A stretch of DNA of 7,009 nt. It comes from a virus. Lineage: Duplodnaviria > Heunggongvirae > Uroviricota > Caudoviricetes. The stretch lies in the IMG/VR virus record IMGVR_UViG_2690316166_000010; one strand, given 5' to 3'. Positions 362 through 6,431 of this stretch are shown piece by piece. Below the pieces are notes generated by a model that made no database searches, was not told the DNA's origin, and worked only from the letters and a program-made list of their open reading frames with translations. The translations under genes were made by a program, and so were the position numbers. The first letter of the stretch is position 1. Every line of letters starts with the position of its first letter.

Positions 362-1342
362 CTAACGTCCTGCTTTTAACAATAACCAGATAAACACCGG
401 CGCACCCAACGTTGCGGTGACCACGCCAATAGGCAGCTCTGCGGCAGCTAATGCCAGGCGCGCTACAATATCGGCCAGCAGCACTGCGCTCGCCCCTGCC
501 AGCGCGCAGCCGGGAAGTAATACGCGATGATCGGTTAAACCACACAACCGAAGAATATGTGGGATCACCAGACCAATAAAGCCGATAGCACCCGCCAGCG
601 CCACACTGACGCCAACCATCCAGCCGGTCGCTGCCACCAGCACATTGCGCCAGAACCACAGGGGTAAACCCAGTTGCCGCGCCGAGATCTCGCCAAGTGC
701 TAACATATTCATCGGCCTGGACTGACAACAGATCCACAACAACACGGGGATCAATGCCAGCATCAGCCAGCTTTGCCGCCAGTCTACGCCGCCAAAACCG
801 CCCATCATCCAGTACATCAGCTGACGTAAATCAACAGAGGTGGAAAAGTAGATAGCCCACGTCATTAGTGCGCTACAGATAATCCCTAATGCAACGCCAG
901 CCAGCAATAACCGACTGGTCGAAAGATGACGACGGGCGAAACGTAAGAGTATTAAAGTGATGATAAGCGCGCCAGCAATCGCACACAGCCCTAGCGCCCA
1001 GTTGGGGAGTTGCCCTTGCCCAAGCAATACCGCGGCGATAAGCCCCACGCCTGCGCCGTTAGAGACGCCAAGTAGTCCAGGTTCTGCCAGAGGATTTTCA
1101 AACAACGCCTGCATTACAGCGCCGGATATAGCCAGCGCCGCACCAACCAGCAATACAGCCAGCGTACGTGGCAGGCGAATTTGCCAGACGAACAGTTCGC
1201 CACGAGGAGTAAACCAGTCACCTGGCGAAATCCATTGTTCACCGGCGCAAAGGCTTAAGAGAAGCGCCAGCAGCATCAAAACTGACAGGCATAATAACCA
1301 GCGAATATTTTGTCGCTGTTGTTGGCGGGCAAGTGTCAGCAT
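362..1342 (-). CDS. btuC: Vitamin B12 ABC transporter permease BtuC (326 aa)
   Basis: Six-frame ORF 362..1342 (-) translates as [44 protein letters not shown]...LLLKAGR, which I recognise as E. coli BtuC. Highly hydrophobic polytopic membrane protein; sits directly upstream of btuE as in the btuCED operon. Confidence 0.95.
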
Positions 1343-1398
1343 GGTATCCGTTCTGCTGAAGTGTCATGGCGTTGATTTTACGGTGACTCTTCGACAGT

Positions 1399-1425
1399 GA
1401 AAAGAAAAAAGGCCGCAGAGCGGCC
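1399..1425 (-). terminator. Rho-independent terminator acting on leftward (minus-strand) transcription
   Basis: Perfect inverted repeat GGCCGC (1411..1416) / GCGGCC (1420..1425) with 3-nt loop. On the minus strand it is followed by TTTTTTCTTTTC (complement of 1399..1410). Lies downstream of the minus-strand ORF ending at 1535 and upstream of the btuC start. Confidence 0.7.
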
Positions 1426-1534
1426 ATAAACACAAACAAAAATCAATAAGTTAGGTAATTATCAAAGACTTACAGACACACAAAAACACAGCCAACCACA
1501 ACAAATAACAGAGATGTGGTCAATTTGTGGATCA

Positions 1535-2089
1535 TCAGCCAACAAATTTAGCAACAAATACAGCAACCGCCGCTGTGAAAATGGTTGTGCACACTGGCAC
1601 AATAATGCCACTCCAACGCCACTTCGTATTATCATCAACCTTGTCAAACCGCCGATTCATCTCATCCATAATCTTGTCAAAGCGTTTATCCATCGCTTCG
1701 GTAAGCTCACCCTTCAGGCTGTTAATGTCTGATTTGAGCTGCTCTTTCAGGTTAGCTGTATCAGATTTAAGCTCACCTTTCAGATTCGCAATATCGCATT
1801 CAAGATCACCTTTCAGATGTGCTATGTCTGCTTTGAGTTCACCTTTCACCTCACCAACATCGGCTTTAGTTGAGAGGTTTGTAGTGCGTTCAGCAAGCGT
1901 CGCAAGGTCGTTTCTTGTTAGCGATAAATCACCTTCGAGCCGCTCAATTCGCCTTTCAAGTTTATCTGACATTCCGCCTCCACTACTGCCGCCATCGCCA
2001 CCATGATAAAGCACATCACGCTCAGAATGCGACACACTACCTGCTGAATTACCGAAAAGATTTCTTGCTACATTACCCATTATCACCAT
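1535..2089 (-). CDS. Tail-anchored coiled-coil protein with five 11-residue (hendecad) repeats and a C-terminal transmembrane helix; hypothetical prophage cargo protein
   Basis: ORF 1535..2089 (-). N-terminal Gly-rich stretch (GGDGGSSGGG), then consecutive 11-aa units (VKGELKADIAH / LKGDLECDIAN / LKGELKSDTAN / LKEQLKSDINS / LKGELTEAMDK), then C-terminal hydrophobic segment WSGIIVPVCTTIFTAAVAVFVAKFVG. A more likely start is ATG at complement of 1970..1972 (MSDKLERR...), preceded by GGAGG (complement of 1977..1981) with 4-nt spacer, giving 145 aa. Terminator downstream at 1399..1425. Confidence 0.65.
   Translation of the reverse strand: MVIMGNVARNLFGNSAGSVSHSERDVLYHGGDGGSSGGGMSDKLERRIERLEGDLSLTRNDLATLAERTTNLSTKADVGEVKGELKADIAHLKGDLECDIANLKGELKSDTANLKEQLKSDINSLKGELTEAMDKRFDKIMDEMNRRFDKVDDNTKWRWSGIIVPVCTTIFTAAVAVFVAKFVG
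1705..1869. repeat. Five imperfect tandem copies of a 33-bp unit inside the coiled-coil CDS
   Basis: Units at 1705..1737, 1738..1770, 1771..1803, 1804..1836 and 1837..1869 share a conserved core CTTTCAG(G/A)T and GATTT(G/A)A ends (e.g. GCTCACCTTTCAGATTCGCAATATCGCATTCAA). Each encodes one 11-residue protein repeat on the minus strand. Confidence 0.85.
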
Positions 2090-2333
2090 CCTGCGCTTTG
2101 TCTTTCTCCAACCACTTCAGCACCGCAGACGTACGATAAAGGCTCAGGTAACCACAATTCAGGCAATGCAGCGTGTAATAAGTTTTGCGCATATCAGGTA
2201 TGCTCTTAACATCACCCAAAAAAGCATAAGATACATAATGCTTTATGTTCTCTTTAATTAACTCACTCTGTTCCTCCAGGGGTAGATTGTTAAAATTTTC
2301 TGGTTTCTTATTTTTATCCCAGCAAAGATCCAT
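2073..2333 (-). CDS. Hypothetical protein, 86 aa if it starts at the visible ATG; the true 5' end may lie in the masked region
   Basis: Minus-strand reading frame open from the N-run down to stop TAA (complement of 2073..2075): MDLCWDKNKKPENFNNLPLEEQSELIKENIKHYVSYAFLGDVKSIPDMRKTYYTLHCLNCGYLSLYRTSAVLKWLEKDKAQDGDNG. AT-rich DNA. Its 3' end overlaps the 2089 start of the coiled-coil gene, suggesting an operon. No convincing Shine-Dalgarno at the visible ATG (2331..2333). Confidence 0.35.
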   Translation of the reverse strand: MDLCWDKNKKPENFNNLPLEEQSELIKENIKHYVSYAFLGDVKSIPDMRKTYYTLHCLNCGYLSLYRTSAVLKWLEKDKAQDGDNG

Positions 2334-3156
2334 ACTTTCTGGAACAGATAATCNNNNNNNNNNNNNNNNNNNNNNNNNNNNNNNNNNNNNNNNNNNNNNN
2401 NNNNNNNNNNNNNNNNNNNNNNNNNNNNNNNNNNNNNNNNNNNNNNNNNNNNNNNNNNNNNNNNNNNNNNNNNNNNNNNNNNNNNNNNNNNNNNNNNNNN
2501 NNNNNNNNNNNNNNNNNNNNNNNNNNNNNNNNNNNNNNNNNNNNNNNNNNNNNNNNNNNNNNNNNNNNNNNNNNNNNNNNNNNNNNNNNNNNNNNNNNNN
2601 NNNNNNNNNNNNNNNNNNNNNNNNNNNNNNNNNNNNNNNNNNNNNNNNNNNNNNNNNNNNNNNNNNNNNNNNNNNNNNNNNNNNNNNNNNNNNNNNNNNN
2701 NNNNNNNNNNNNNNNNNNNNNNNNNNNNNNNNNNNNNNNNNNNNNNNNNNNNNNNNNNNNNNNNNNNNNNNNNNNNNNNNNNNNNNNNNNNNNNNNNNNN
2801 NNNNNNNNNNNNNNNNNNNNNNNNNNNNNNNNNNNNNNNNNNNNNNNNNNNNNNNNNNNNNNNNNNNNNNNNNNNNNNNNNNNNNNNNNNNNNNNNNNNN
2901 NNNNNNNNNNNNNNNNNNNNNNNNNNNNNNNNNNNNNNNNNNNNNNNNNNNNNNNNNNNNNNNNNNNNNNNNNNNNNNNNNNNNNNNNNNNNNNNNNNNN
3001 NNNNNNNNNNNNNNNNNNNNNNNNNNNNNNNNNNNNNNNNNNNNNNNNNNNNNNNNNNNNNNNNNNNNNNNNNNNNNNNNNNNNNNNNNNNNNNNNNNNN
3101 NNNNNNNNNNNNNNNNNNNNNNNNNNNNNNNNNNNNNNNNNNNNNNNNNNNNNNNN

Positions 3157-3776: not shown

Positions 3777-3825
3777 TCGTGAAGCCCCAGCGTTACAAGA
3801 CCACCATGCCCCCAGCGTTCCATGA

Positions 3826-4137
3826 TTAGCCGGGCTGTGTGCCAGTCTTGCGGGATTTTTGAGAAGACGATGTGTTTTCTGGCCCATCAGGGGAGAGAGA
3901 AGGACTGATCTGCCCAGCAGCCTCATTTGTTTCGTTACTCATCAACCACGTAGTGTATTTTTTAAATTCCGGGTGCATTGTGATTTTCAGTAAAACCTCC
4001 GTTCCCACACCTCGAATACCAGTCTCGTATTGCTTAACCGTACCAACCGCAATACCTATTGAATCCGCGAACTTTGCCTGACTAAGCCCCTCAGATTCTC
4101 GAATTGCTTTTAGCTTCTTTGATATCTCTATTGACAT
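3826..4137 (-). CDS. C: P2 C-like immunity repressor (103 aa, helix-turn-helix)
   Basis: ATG at complement of 4135..4137, preceded by AGGTG (complement of 4144..4148). Product MSIEISKKLKAIRESEGLSQAKFADSIGIAVGTVKQYETGIRGVGTEVLLKITMHPEFKKYTTWLMSNETNEAAGQISPSLSPDGPENTSSSQKSRKTGTQPG resembles the P2 C repressor as I recall it (FTKYTLWFMTNQ...GQIAP...SGQKTG) in length and motifs. Position between int and a divergent cox-like gene fits. The six-frame ORF start at 4239 is an upstream extension. Confidence 0.8.
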   Translation of the reverse strand: MSIEISKKLKAIRESEGLSQAKFADSIGIAVGTVKQYETGIRGVGTEVLLKITMHPEFKKYTTWLMSNETNEAAGQISPSLSPDGPENTSSSQKSRKTGTQPG

Positions 4138-4232
4138 GGTGTGCACCTGAATACTATATTGGTTATCAGTTGAGTACCACTTGACGCTACAAAGAGCCAC
4201 AAATAGCACCAGATTGAATAGGTTATCACACC
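4138..4232. promoter_or_regulatory. Divergent switch region between the repressor and cox-like genes (candidate Pc/Pe promoters and operators)
   Basis: 95-bp intergenic region between divergently oriented repressor (start 4137, -) and cox-like gene (start 4233, +). Contains direct repeats TATTGGTTATCAG (4157..4169) and AATAGGTTATCAC (4217..4229) sharing the 8-mer GGTTATCA. TTGACG -35-like hexamer at 4181..4186 (+). TATAGT -10-like hexamer on the minus strand (complement of 4153..4158). Hexamer assignments are tentative. Confidence 0.55.
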
Positions 4233-4511
4233 ATGGCAAAAGTCCTTAACACATACGAACAAGCGGATTTTGAGCGTTTGGCGGCGTTCTACCCATACCG
4301 TAATGAACATGGGCTACCGGTACTTGAAGAAAGCCTAGAGGATTATGCGAAACGCACAAATCAAAGCATTCTCGCTGTAAGAAGGCAGGCTGATAGATCG
4401 GTAATTCCCGTTACTCAAGAAGGAAGAAACACAAAACGCAAAGTAAATCTCTTCGCAATTTTCCTGAAAACCATCAGAAACGCAGAGAAATACGTGCAGA
4501 TGACAAAATAA
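4233..4511 (+). CDS. cox: Cox/Apl-like excisionase and transcriptional regulator (92 aa)
   Basis: First gene of the rightward operon, divergent from the repressor as in P2 and 186. Product MAKVLNTYEQADFERLAAFYPYRNEHGLPVLEESLEDYAKRTNQSILAVRRQADRSVIPVTQEG... The segment YAKRTNQSILAVRRQADRSVIPV resembles the DNA-binding region of P2 Cox as I recall it (FAKLIGKSTGAVRRMIDKGKLPVI). Confidence 0.6.
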   Translation: MAKVLNTYEQADFERLAAFYPYRNEHGLPVLEESLEDYAKRTNQSILAVRRQADRSVIPVTQEGRNTKRKVNLFAIFLKTIRNAEKYVQMTK

Positions 4512-4525
4512 CGAGGTGTCATTTT

Positions 4526-5036
4526 ATGCTGAAGCAACGCCGTAATTTTTGTACCGGAACAGAACGCCACGCTAACCGTTTCACTACCAGTGCATCACGC
4601 AGCAACATCCGCTACAGCCTGAGTGATACACACGCAACGCCGGATGGCTACCCAGTAAAACAAATCGGCGAGCACGCCTGGCTGATTGAGAAAGCTGGAA
4701 TCGTGATCCACAAATGCCCACGCAATCCGTTTACCGGAAACCGCATTTTTGCACTGAGCTGTGGCGACAATCAGTTCGGGCAGGATTTCACATTATACGA
4801 AGCACTTCGCACGGTTGATCGTCTGCTTCGCGGGCAAAGTTTTATTAAACAGGCTGATNNNNNNNNNNNNNNNNNNNNNNNNNNNNNNNNNNNNNNNNNN
4901 NNNNNNNNNNNNNNNNNNNNNNNNNNNNNNNNNNNNNNNNNNNNNNNNNNNNNNNNNNNNNNNNNNNNNNNNNNNNCTTCGCACGGTTGATCGTCTGCTT
5001 CGCGGGCAAAGTTTTATTAAACAGGCTGATTTATAA
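4526..5036 (+). CDS. Hypothetical early-operon protein, interrupted by N-run 4859..4976; about 112 aa if the flanking 54-bp repeat is a gap artefact
   Basis: ATG 4526 preceded by GAGGTG about 8 nt upstream. Frame open to the N-run: MLKQRRNFCTGTERHANRFTTSASRSNIRYSLSDTHATPDGYPVKQIGEHAWLIEKAGIVIHKCPRNPFTGNRIFALSCGDNQFGQDFTLYEALRTVDRLLRGQSFIKQAD. The same final 18 codons recur after the gap, followed by L and stop TAA (5034..5036). Several Cys/His residues; no family recognised. Confidence 0.5.
4805..5030. repeat. Perfect 54-bp direct repeat flanking the 118-nt N-run
   Basis: 4805..4858 (CTTCGCACGGTTGATCGTCTGCTTCGCGGGCAAAGTTTTATTAAACAGGCTGAT) is identical to 4977..5030. The N-run lies exactly between the two copies. 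Confidence 0.9.
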
Positions 5037-6157: not shown

Positions 6158-6431
6158 NNNNNNNNNNNNNNNNNNNNNNNNNNNNNNNNNNNNNNNNNNN
6201 NNNNNNNNNNNNNNNNNNNNNNNNNNNNNNNNNNNNNNNNNNNNNNNNNNNNNNNNNNNNNNNNNNNNNNNNNNNNNNNNNNNNNNNNNNNNNNNNNNNN
6301 NNNNNNNNNNNNNNNNNNNNNNNNNNNNNNNNNNNNNNNNNNNNNNNNNNNNNNNNNNNNNNNNNNNNNNNNNNNNNNNNNNNNNNNNNNNNNNNNNNNN
6401 NNNNNACATCTGTAACAAGAGGATTGCCGCA

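Follow-up and report, generated by a model that had tools for sequence, protein, structure and literature searches.

Introduction

The C-type repressors of P2-type phages have operators whose spacing is known to vary, from 22 bp in P2 to 26 bp in P2 Hy dis and 34 bp in WPhi (PMC1904268). In the annotated P2 record, the -35 element of the early promoter Pe lies over the start of C, the operator O1 sits in the promoter spacer and O2 follows three bases after the -10, which places O1 and O2 22 bp apart, while the repressor promoter Pc is found on the other strand near cox. The P2 cox-boxes, which are 10-11 bp apart, overlap Pc, itself located ~60 bp from Pe (PMC3936717).

Here, we follow up an earlier note on a 7009-base stretch of DNA (hereafter the window), in which a piece of Escherichia coli chromosome (with btuC at 362-1342, minus strand) is followed by a P2-like prophage. 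The note had singled out two copies of a short element between divergent C-like and cox-like genes, which it read as immunity operators set unusually far apart. Although tempting, this appears to be a misreading: the conspicuous exact repeat is very probably not the operator pair and there would be no unusual 60-bp geometry. What emerges is a testable operator assignment (O1 at 4137-4156 and O2 at 4160-4179) for a C-type immunity class often met with in prophages of E. coli and Salmonella, together with a clear modular build in which the repressor domain, Pe and the operators on the one hand, and cox, Pc and a Cox array on the other, would be exchanged independently.

The locus and its repressor

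The region of interest is a 95-bp intergenic gap (4138-4232) flanked by the gene of a C-type immunity repressor (3826-4137, minus strand; 103 aa) and by a cox-like gene (4233-4511, plus strand; 92 aa), with which the early operon begins. A 695-bp stretch (3826-4520) is identical in E. coli O26 RM8426 and, among the matches listed, in ten further complete genomes, and the locus is present in ~30 of 5426 complete E. coli genomes (at least 94% identity, full coverage). In public assemblies, thousands of indexed blocks contain a Salmonella variant of the class-A switch. In the RefSeq annotation of RM8426, an integrase gene and an HTH regulator (the C-like gene) are followed across the gap by a 92-aa hypothetical protein (the cox-like gene), DUF4761 and DUF4754, with a replication endonuclease and ParM further downstream. 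The prophage backbone is P88-like, given that its DUF4761 gene shares 88-98% identity with its counterparts in phage P88 and other Xuanwuvirus records. Rfam and tRNA scans of the 7009-base window gave no matches.

The repressor, which consists of an N-terminal HTH domain and a C-terminal tail common to heteroimmune classes (see below), matches the P2 C structures PDB 2XCJ/2L49 over residues 1-99 (phmmer, E=5.5e-18), is 47-49% identical to C of P2, WPhi and L-413C (tblastn), and is a full-length match to phrog_147 (E=4.9e-34), with Pfam HTH_3 also matched. Judged by its sequence, it is a bona fide P2 C homologue. This end-to-end homology, the gene order and a Pe whose -35 lies over the C start (see below) bear out the divergent P2-type layout that had been recognised from the first, and the 95-bp gap is likely to be the lysis/lysogeny switch of a P88/P2-like E. 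coli prophage.

Immunity classes I-VII were reportedly defined by Karlsson et al. in 2006. The best C gene in the phage collection that we searched is at most 63% identical to that of the window, and the recognition helix is GTVKQYE in class A, as against STIKKYE in a sister specificity group (L010, L033 and L034). We are apparently dealing with an uncharacterised immunity class of standard geometry, as seen in a partial comparison with the ten classes of the literature, among which class IX (PhiECO5, UTI89) was inspected and found to have a different C and a 173-aa Cox. A scan of species-representative genomes with a two-sequence repressor alignment returned four distant loci (in Photorhabdus, Kosakonia, Dryocola and Pelagimonas), which were left out.

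The repeat pair

The repeat itself is exactly where the earlier note had placed it. Two copies of GGTTATCA are found at 4161-4168 and 4221-4228, both on the plus strand and thus direct, 60 bp apart from start to start and inside the 95-bp gap, and no third exact copy occurs on either strand of the window. The match is 8/8 over the element and 10/11 when extended (ATTGGTTATCA / ATAGGTTATCA). When the 95 bases were shuffled with their dinucleotides preserved, 71/2000 shuffles (3.6%) had a direct 8-mer repeat that was exact and 24/2000 (1.2%) a 10/11 direct match. The repeat is therefore real yet just mildly unusual, and on its own it is no strong evidence for function.

Copies that are exact, direct and confined to the switch region are nevertheless what one would look for in an operator, especially since P2-type repressors use direct repeats with a spacing that ranges from 22 to 34 bp. 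The two elements could then be operator half-sites set wider than in P2, P2 Hy dis and WPhi. We consider this highly improbable. A site at the start of cox would be ~60 bp downstream of the Pe -10 and of no help in occluding Pe, and the left copy has a nearer and conserved partner at the canonical distance of 23 bp, which is described next; the distribution of the right copy among relatives and heteroimmune prophages, to which we come thereafter, speaks against it as well.

The early promoter and its probable operators

The early promoter Pe (4131-4160, plus strand) has a -35 TTGACA (4131-4136), an 18-bp spacer and a -10 TATATT (4155-4160), matches the consensus at 11/12 positions and is the sole promoter-like match found between 3800 and 4600 by a standard scan. 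Its -35 overlaps the C start codon (CAT, 4135-4137), in the same place as in the annotated P2 record, and its start is predicted, at the sequence level, near 4167.

An unbiased scan for 17-nt direct repeats points to two sites that flank the Pe -10, with centres 23 bp apart. The probable operator O1 (4137-4156, TGGTGTGCACCTGAATACTA) takes up the Pe spacer, and the complement of the C Shine-Dalgarno sequence lies within it as well. The probable operator O2 (4160-4179, TGGTTATCAGTTGAGTACCA) extends from the last base of the Pe -10 across the predicted transcription start; its left half (4161-4168, plus strand) is none other than the left GGTTATCA, directly after the -10, where P2 has its O2, and its right half is TGAGTACC. 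The 17-nt cores, GGTGTGCACCTGAATAC (4138-4154) for O1 and GGTTATCAGTTGAGTAC (4161-4177) for O2, form a direct repeat at an offset of 23, their agreement in the window being just 11/17. We also considered reading O2 as an 11-bp tandem (TTGGTTATCAG / TTGAGTACCAC / TTGACGCTACA), which was rejected: the third unit is unconserved in relatives and O1 does not fit.

How much weight can this pair bear? In an anchored shuffle test on the window alone, the O1/O2 repeat was equalled in 93/5000 cases. Every class-A relative has a 17-nt repeat right after the C start codon, with an offset of 23-25 and 11-13/17 matches, which ranks at or near the top, and the same scan recovers the known pairs of P2 (22 bp) and WPhi (34 bp). 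A half-site matrix built from non-E. coli relatives alone (consensus TGGTAATCAG) gives 14.1 and 13.1 bits for the halves of O2 and 11.0 and 12.2 bits for those of O1, so that the four half-sites are among the six best matches in the whole window. The half-sites have the form TGGTnnnCA and each site, of ~20 bp, is weakly palindromic. Further evidence comes from the sister lineage L010, which has GGTTCATTCCTATGATC / GGTTCATGCTAATGAAC at the O1/O2 positions. By comparison with L031 (GGTGTGCACCTGATTAC / GGTTAGCAGTTGAGTAC), positions 6, 7, 12, 13 and 15 have changed in parallel in both sites, as expected if one protein reads both.

Judging from these sequence patterns, O1 and O2 together are probably the repressor operator. 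Read in this way, the left GGTTATCA makes up the left half of O2, and it is O1, 23 bp upstream, with which it is paired. The suggestion of an additional unseen half-site thus proved perceptive, since a degenerate partner (O1) was indeed there to be found, but the wide geometry that accompanied it has to be given up in favour of a probable operator spacing of 23 bp, against 22 bp in P2.

Relatives with class-A-type repressors

When the first 77 residues of the repressor were used as the query of a protein search, Salmonella and Klebsiella relatives with 61-99% identity came up (one Klebsiella record was taken from the phage collection). This led to a set of ten distinct class-A-type loci from E. 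coli, Salmonella and Klebsiella, whose repressors are 70-100% identical over these 77 residues and which have at least three different cox types. The segment corresponding to 4128-4179 is almost invariant in these loci and better conserved than the adjoining C codons. Conservation ends abruptly, and the loci are unalignable beyond ...GAGTACC (4179). O1 is invariant or nearly so in all 10, although this is not independent proof of an operator because O1 carries the C ribosome-binding site and the Pe spacer. A scan of IMG/VR with the Pe/O1 pattern found 27 loci and no new variants.

The two copies of the repeat behave very differently in this set. The left 8-mer is GGTTATCA, GGTTAACA, GGTTAGCA or GGTAAGCA. 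The right element goes with the neighbouring cox: next to the MAKVLN-type cox or a close variant of it, one finds AGGTTATCAC, AGGTTAACAC or AGGGTATCAC, and next to the Klebsiella-type cox AGGATATCAC, AGGATACCAT or AGGATAACAC; there is none in L026, which has yet another cox type but in which O1 and O2 are intact. Left and right copies do not vary in concert. It also counts against their being two halves of one operator that the right element is GGTTAACA in relatives whose recognition helix is identical, and GGATATCA, GGATACCA or missing in others. The idea that the repeats were inherited together with repressor specificity is accordingly half right. It holds for the left copy, which is conserved with class-A repressors, and fails for the right copy, which follows cox.

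Heteroimmune prophages and the limits of the immunity cassette

Heteroimmune sister prophages were found by a distant blastn search of E. coli genomes. They fall into class B (O104:H4 and others; L003-L005 and L007) and class C (E2348/69, O157:H7, SE11 and others; L006 and L008). Both classes share with the window the integrase, the C-terminal tail of C, a Pe of the form TTGACA-18-TAnnnT, the cox-like gene (whose product is 67-82% identical to that of the window) and the cox-proximal 40 bp including AGGTTATCACA, but they differ from it in their N-terminal DNA-binding domains and operators. The operator repeats are two copies of AGACGACT 32 bp apart in class B and two copies of TATAAGTACAC 34 bp apart in class C.

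The limits of an immunity cassette were set at 3930-4195 from the identity to L003, L005 and L006 in sliding windows: over this segment, identity to these heteroimmune E. coli prophages is ~50%, as against 80-100% in the flanks. Up to ~3915, classes B and C are 93-100% identical to the window (the more distant L005, 87-93%), and identity is back to 80-90% from ~4197 through cox. The cassette therefore ends ~25 bp before the right GGTTATCA (4221-4228, plus strand), which lies outside it, in the cox-linked module. Directly 5' of the cox ATG, AGGTTATCACA is retained in classes B and C despite their unrelated operator repeats. Being outside the cassette, kept in heteroimmune classes and cox-following, the right copy cannot define immunity specificity, contrary to what had been suspected, and this also speaks against the repeat pair as an operator.

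The heteroimmune classes shed light on the symmetry of the sites too. Over 20 bp, self-complementarity is 14/20 for O2 and 12/20 for O1, which is not significant alone in the window because a 20-mer with at least 14/20 arises in 661/2000 shuffles. Equivalent sites reach 16/20 in the sister group, 14/20 and 18/20 in the two 20-mers of class B, and 16/20 and 20/20 in the two 20-bp sites of class C. Palindromic symmetry is thus a pattern at the level of the lineage and not stand-alone evidence. On a further reading, which we hold to be unlikely, the clear tandem palindromes of classes B and C would show that what are called direct repeats in the C family are really tandem dimer sites.

The cox-proximal module

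If the right GGTTATCA is not part of the operator, what is it? It lies in a densely packed segment, where it overlaps the likely cox Shine-Dalgarno AGG (4220-4222), the -35 of a candidate Pc and the fourth unit of a 10-bp periodic array. The AGG is the sole Shine-Dalgarno-like element for cox; in the Klebsiella-type module, there is an AGGA 6 nt from the cox ATG. What explains the conservation of the right copy is the initiation of cox translation, not repressor specificity; Pc and the Cox array, both of which are candidate elements, probably contribute.

The array (4190-4229; CAAAGAGCCA / CAAATAGCAC / CAGATTGAAT / AGGTTATCAC) resembles cox-boxes and is a candidate binding array for the Cox-like protein. 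Its best 17-mer at an offset of 10 matches at 12/17 positions, a value reached by 1/1000 shuffles. Most relatives share the periodicity in a weaker form (4/12 at no more than 16/1000 shuffles and 5 more at 29-60/1000), and there is none in L010. As a control, the same test on P2 gave a peak at an offset of 10 in the Pc-proximal part (0/1000 shuffles). With this periodicity as the basis, we suggest that the array is probably bound by the Cox-like protein.

No leftward promoter came out of the standard scan of 3800-4600. The best leftward candidate of a relaxed scan, with 7/12 matches, is a weak Pc (4200-4229, minus strand) with a -35 GTGATA (4229-4224), an 18-bp spacer, a -10 TATTTG (4205-4200) and an extended TGn. 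Its position is analogous to that of the annotated Pc of P2 and WPhi, beside cox. With a Pe start near 4167, the two predicted transcripts would overlap by ~25 nt; in P2, the Pe and Pc transcripts overlap by roughly 30 nt. Another leftward candidate, GTGGTA-16-TATAGT (4180-4153), was discarded, as its transcript would begin within the C ribosome-binding site.

The cox-like protein belongs with phrog_11533 (unknown function; E=4e-53) and matches phrog_575 ('Cox-like excisionase and repressor') weakly (E=0.008). Against a P2/WPhi Cox profile, hhalign gives a 67% probability (E=5e-5) over 36 residues of the HTH segment. Position and size fit Cox, and a single-sequence AlphaFold model (pLDDT 57) was too weak to use. 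The protein may tentatively be seen as the positional equivalent of Cox, with weak homology.

The composition of this segment leaves some room for the right copy to be more than a bystander. It could be a low-affinity half-site for C, placed over the Pc -35 and the cox ribosome-binding site, in a switch where O1 and O2 remain the main operator; at high repressor levels, such a third site would lower C synthesis or stabilise a wrapped or looped complex. Regulation of this kind would not be out of character, since P2 C is reported to up-regulate itself at low and down-regulate itself at high concentration (PMC3448106). The exact 8-mer is mildly improbable by chance (as is the 10/11 match), the right copy lies 60 bp (~six helical turns) from the O2 left half and hence on the same face of the DNA, Salmonella relatives retain a 7/8 match, and with 9.3 bits the right copy ranks seventh in the window by the independent half-site matrix. 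Yet it ranks there as a lone half-site, with no partner (CCATGGCAA is not TGGTnnnCA-like), and two better lone matches arise by chance in the coding sequence of the window. Furthermore, the sequence of the right element is identical in prophages of unrelated repressor specificities, changes with the type of cox and not with C, does not co-vary with the left copy, and is missing altogether in L026 in spite of intact O1 and O2. We therefore find this reading unlikely, and its most elaborate form, in which one wrapped or looped three-site repressor array silences Pe, limits Pc and masks cox translation initiation, somewhat harder still to credit. We know of no P2-type switch for which a three-site geometry with a distal half-site has been described.

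The same element might instead be read by the Cox-like protein, or by a host factor. For the right copy, this would mean a place as the final unit of the array, and the left copy would nucleate or receive a Cox filament that shuts Pe too, giving Cox autoregulation as in P2. The phasing is suggestive, with array units starting at 4190, 4200, 4210 and 4220 and the left copy (4160-4161) in phase six periods away from the last, and for P2 a spread of the Cox filament in the direction of Pe, which is ~60 bp from Pc, has been proposed (PMC3936717). The left copy, however, is conserved with C and not with cox, and classes B and C, despite their closely similar Cox-like proteins, are without a GGTTATCA-like sequence near Pe, which makes this a very improbable explanation. 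As for host factors, readings of TTATCA as an IHF site or a DnaA box were dismissed as poor by eye, with at least 2 mismatches each.

A switch probably built of two modules

The anatomy of the locus, the boundaries of conservation, the C homology and the changes that run parallel in O1 and O2 are direct observations. We propose that the switch probably consists of two modules with separate evolutionary histories, which are exchanged independently. The left module (4131-4179), made of Pe, O1 and O2, is likely to travel with the DNA-binding domain of the repressor, and there is a good chance that the right module (~4190-4232), made of the 10-bp array, the weak Pc and the cox ribosome-binding site, travels with cox. 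The exact 8/8 match between a half-site in the former and a translation start in the latter is most likely fortuitous, and we doubt that the right copy amounts even to a weak accessory half-site.

By analogy with what is known in the P2 family, protein binding, Pc activity and the role of the Cox-like protein would fit together as follows. Two C dimers would bind O1 and O2 cooperatively and occlude Pe from RNA polymerase, as in P2. Transcription from Pc would run leftward across the operators to C and int. The Cox-like protein would polymerise on the 10-bp array and shut Pc.

Comparison with known switches

How does this switch compare with those that have been described? Phage 186, with its CI/Apl system, has face-to-face lytic and lysogenic promoters as well, and also a small protein with the double role of excisionase and repressor, which binds to direct repeats spaced by one helical turn. 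Its CI, however, is larger and unrelated to C, and it has CII in addition (PMC1904268; PMC3448106). The window has a C-type repressor and is therefore not a 186-type switch.

WPhi (class III) and P2 Hy dis both have C-type repressors that act on two direct repeats near Pe, and in WPhi the annotated Pe also lies over the C start, with Pc abutting cox. In WPhi, however, the half-sites are of 10 bp and 34 bp apart, against 23 bp for the pair in the window, and the half-sites of P2 Hy dis, 26 bp apart, flank the -35, whereas those of the window flank the -10.

There is also a close likeness to P2 itself (immunity class I). Its repressor, of ~100 aa, is homologous (48% identity, end-to-end with 2XCJ). 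In both switches, int and C are read leftward and cox is read rightward, and the C start codon is overlapped by the Pe -35. Of the two repressor sites, known in P2 and probable here, one occupies the Pe spacer and the other comes directly after the -10, about two helical turns away (at 22 bp in P2 and 23 bp in the window). The cox-proximal half, where Pc lies in P2 and would lie here, has an array of 10-bp period. The differences are as follows: the operator sequences are unrelated (TTTAGAT(C/G) in P2), with 8-bp non-palindromic repeats in P2 as against weakly palindromic sites of 17-20 bp here; the intergenic gap is 114 bp in P2 and 95 bp here; Cox is only marginally similar; and the backbone is that of a P88-like Xuanwuvirus and not of a Peduovirus. 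For specialists of these phages, the locus brings confirmation and extension rather than surprise, its geometry being standard for the family.

Exchange of immunity cassettes

The repressor gene of the P2-like prophages compared here is conserved very unevenly. Its tail, that is, the last ~30 codons (NEAAGQISPSLSPDG...; window 3826-3915), shows 93-100% DNA identity across three heteroimmune E. coli classes, whereas the stretch comprising the HTH domain and the operators (window 3930-4195) is only ~50% identical among them. Immunity cassettes are therefore exchanged through recombination that takes place within the repressor gene itself. A further case, in which the whole switch has been replaced on the same backbone, comes from the E. 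coli UTI89 prophage PhiECO5. Its switch (L037:1861-2827), tentatively immunity class IX, consists of a 113-aa HTH repressor unrelated to that of the E. coli RM8426 prophage and a 173-aa 'Cox family' protein. The UTI89 and RM8426 prophages encode an identical DUF4754 protein (WP_000514277.1) and differ in integration site, the former adjoining dmsA.

Two sister prophages carry damaged switches. In Ecol_224 (L007:813-1140), the cox-like gene is truncated after ~30 codons, while in O157:H7 BB24-1 (L008:906-1570) cox is interrupted by an IS1203 element. Both are repressor-only remnants, which should still be able to confer immunity.

Prophage setting and cargo

The prophage directly adjoins btuC (window 1343-2200; L001:3741-4970 in RM8426), with a DUF1640 ORF (1535-2089, minus strand) and one hypothetical gene separating btuC from int. 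In the RM8426 prophage (L001:11646-12695), ParM and a plasmid-partition gene directly follow the gpA-like replication endonuclease; integrated P2-like prophages do not usually carry such genes. Three masked runs of N break up the integrase region (window 2354-3156), the DUF4761 gene (4859-4976) and a downstream ORF (6158-6405). Compared with the RM8426 locus, the window is shifted by 223 bp on the left side of the first run, and therefore either the length of the masked run is not the true one or the source strain differs slightly from RM8426.

Sequence elements around the repressor and cox-like genes

Just upstream of cox are four in-phase 10-bp units, CAAAGAGCCA / CAAATAGCAC / CAGATTGAAT / AGGTTATCAC (window 4190-4229). 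Relatives with other cox types have arrays of different sequence in which the 10-bp periodicity is retained, as exemplified by L029 (CCTAAAACTG / CTTAAACTTG / CGTAAACACG). These arrays are probably equivalents of the P2 cox-boxes, one for each Cox-like protein.

An inverted repeat (14/16; window 4128-4143 and 4227-4242) spans both start codons, giving the repressor gene (minus strand) and cox (plus strand) a common CACACC-ATG-G context; the other classes have only part of it. Within the cox-like coding region, a terminator-like hairpin is followed by a T-run (4437-4457, minus strand). It is the sole such match in 3800-4600 and probably arose by chance, since shuffled sequences average 0.7 matches.

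Operator symmetry

The early promoters of the heteroimmune classes B and C carry 'direct repeats' that are in fact tandem palindromes. In class C, represented by the E. coli E2348/69 prophage (L006:614-633 and 648-667, 34 bp apart), AGTGTTCCTATAAGTACACT is self-complementary at 16/20 positions and GGTGTACTTATAAGTACACC at 20/20; in class B, represented by the O104:H4 prophage (L003:612-631 and 644-663, 32 bp apart), the corresponding values are 14/20 and 18/20. This arrangement suggests that some C-family repressors may be ordinary palindrome-binding dimers set in tandem. How the symmetric P2 C dimer reads direct repeats is a published puzzle (PMC2995052), on which this possibility bears.
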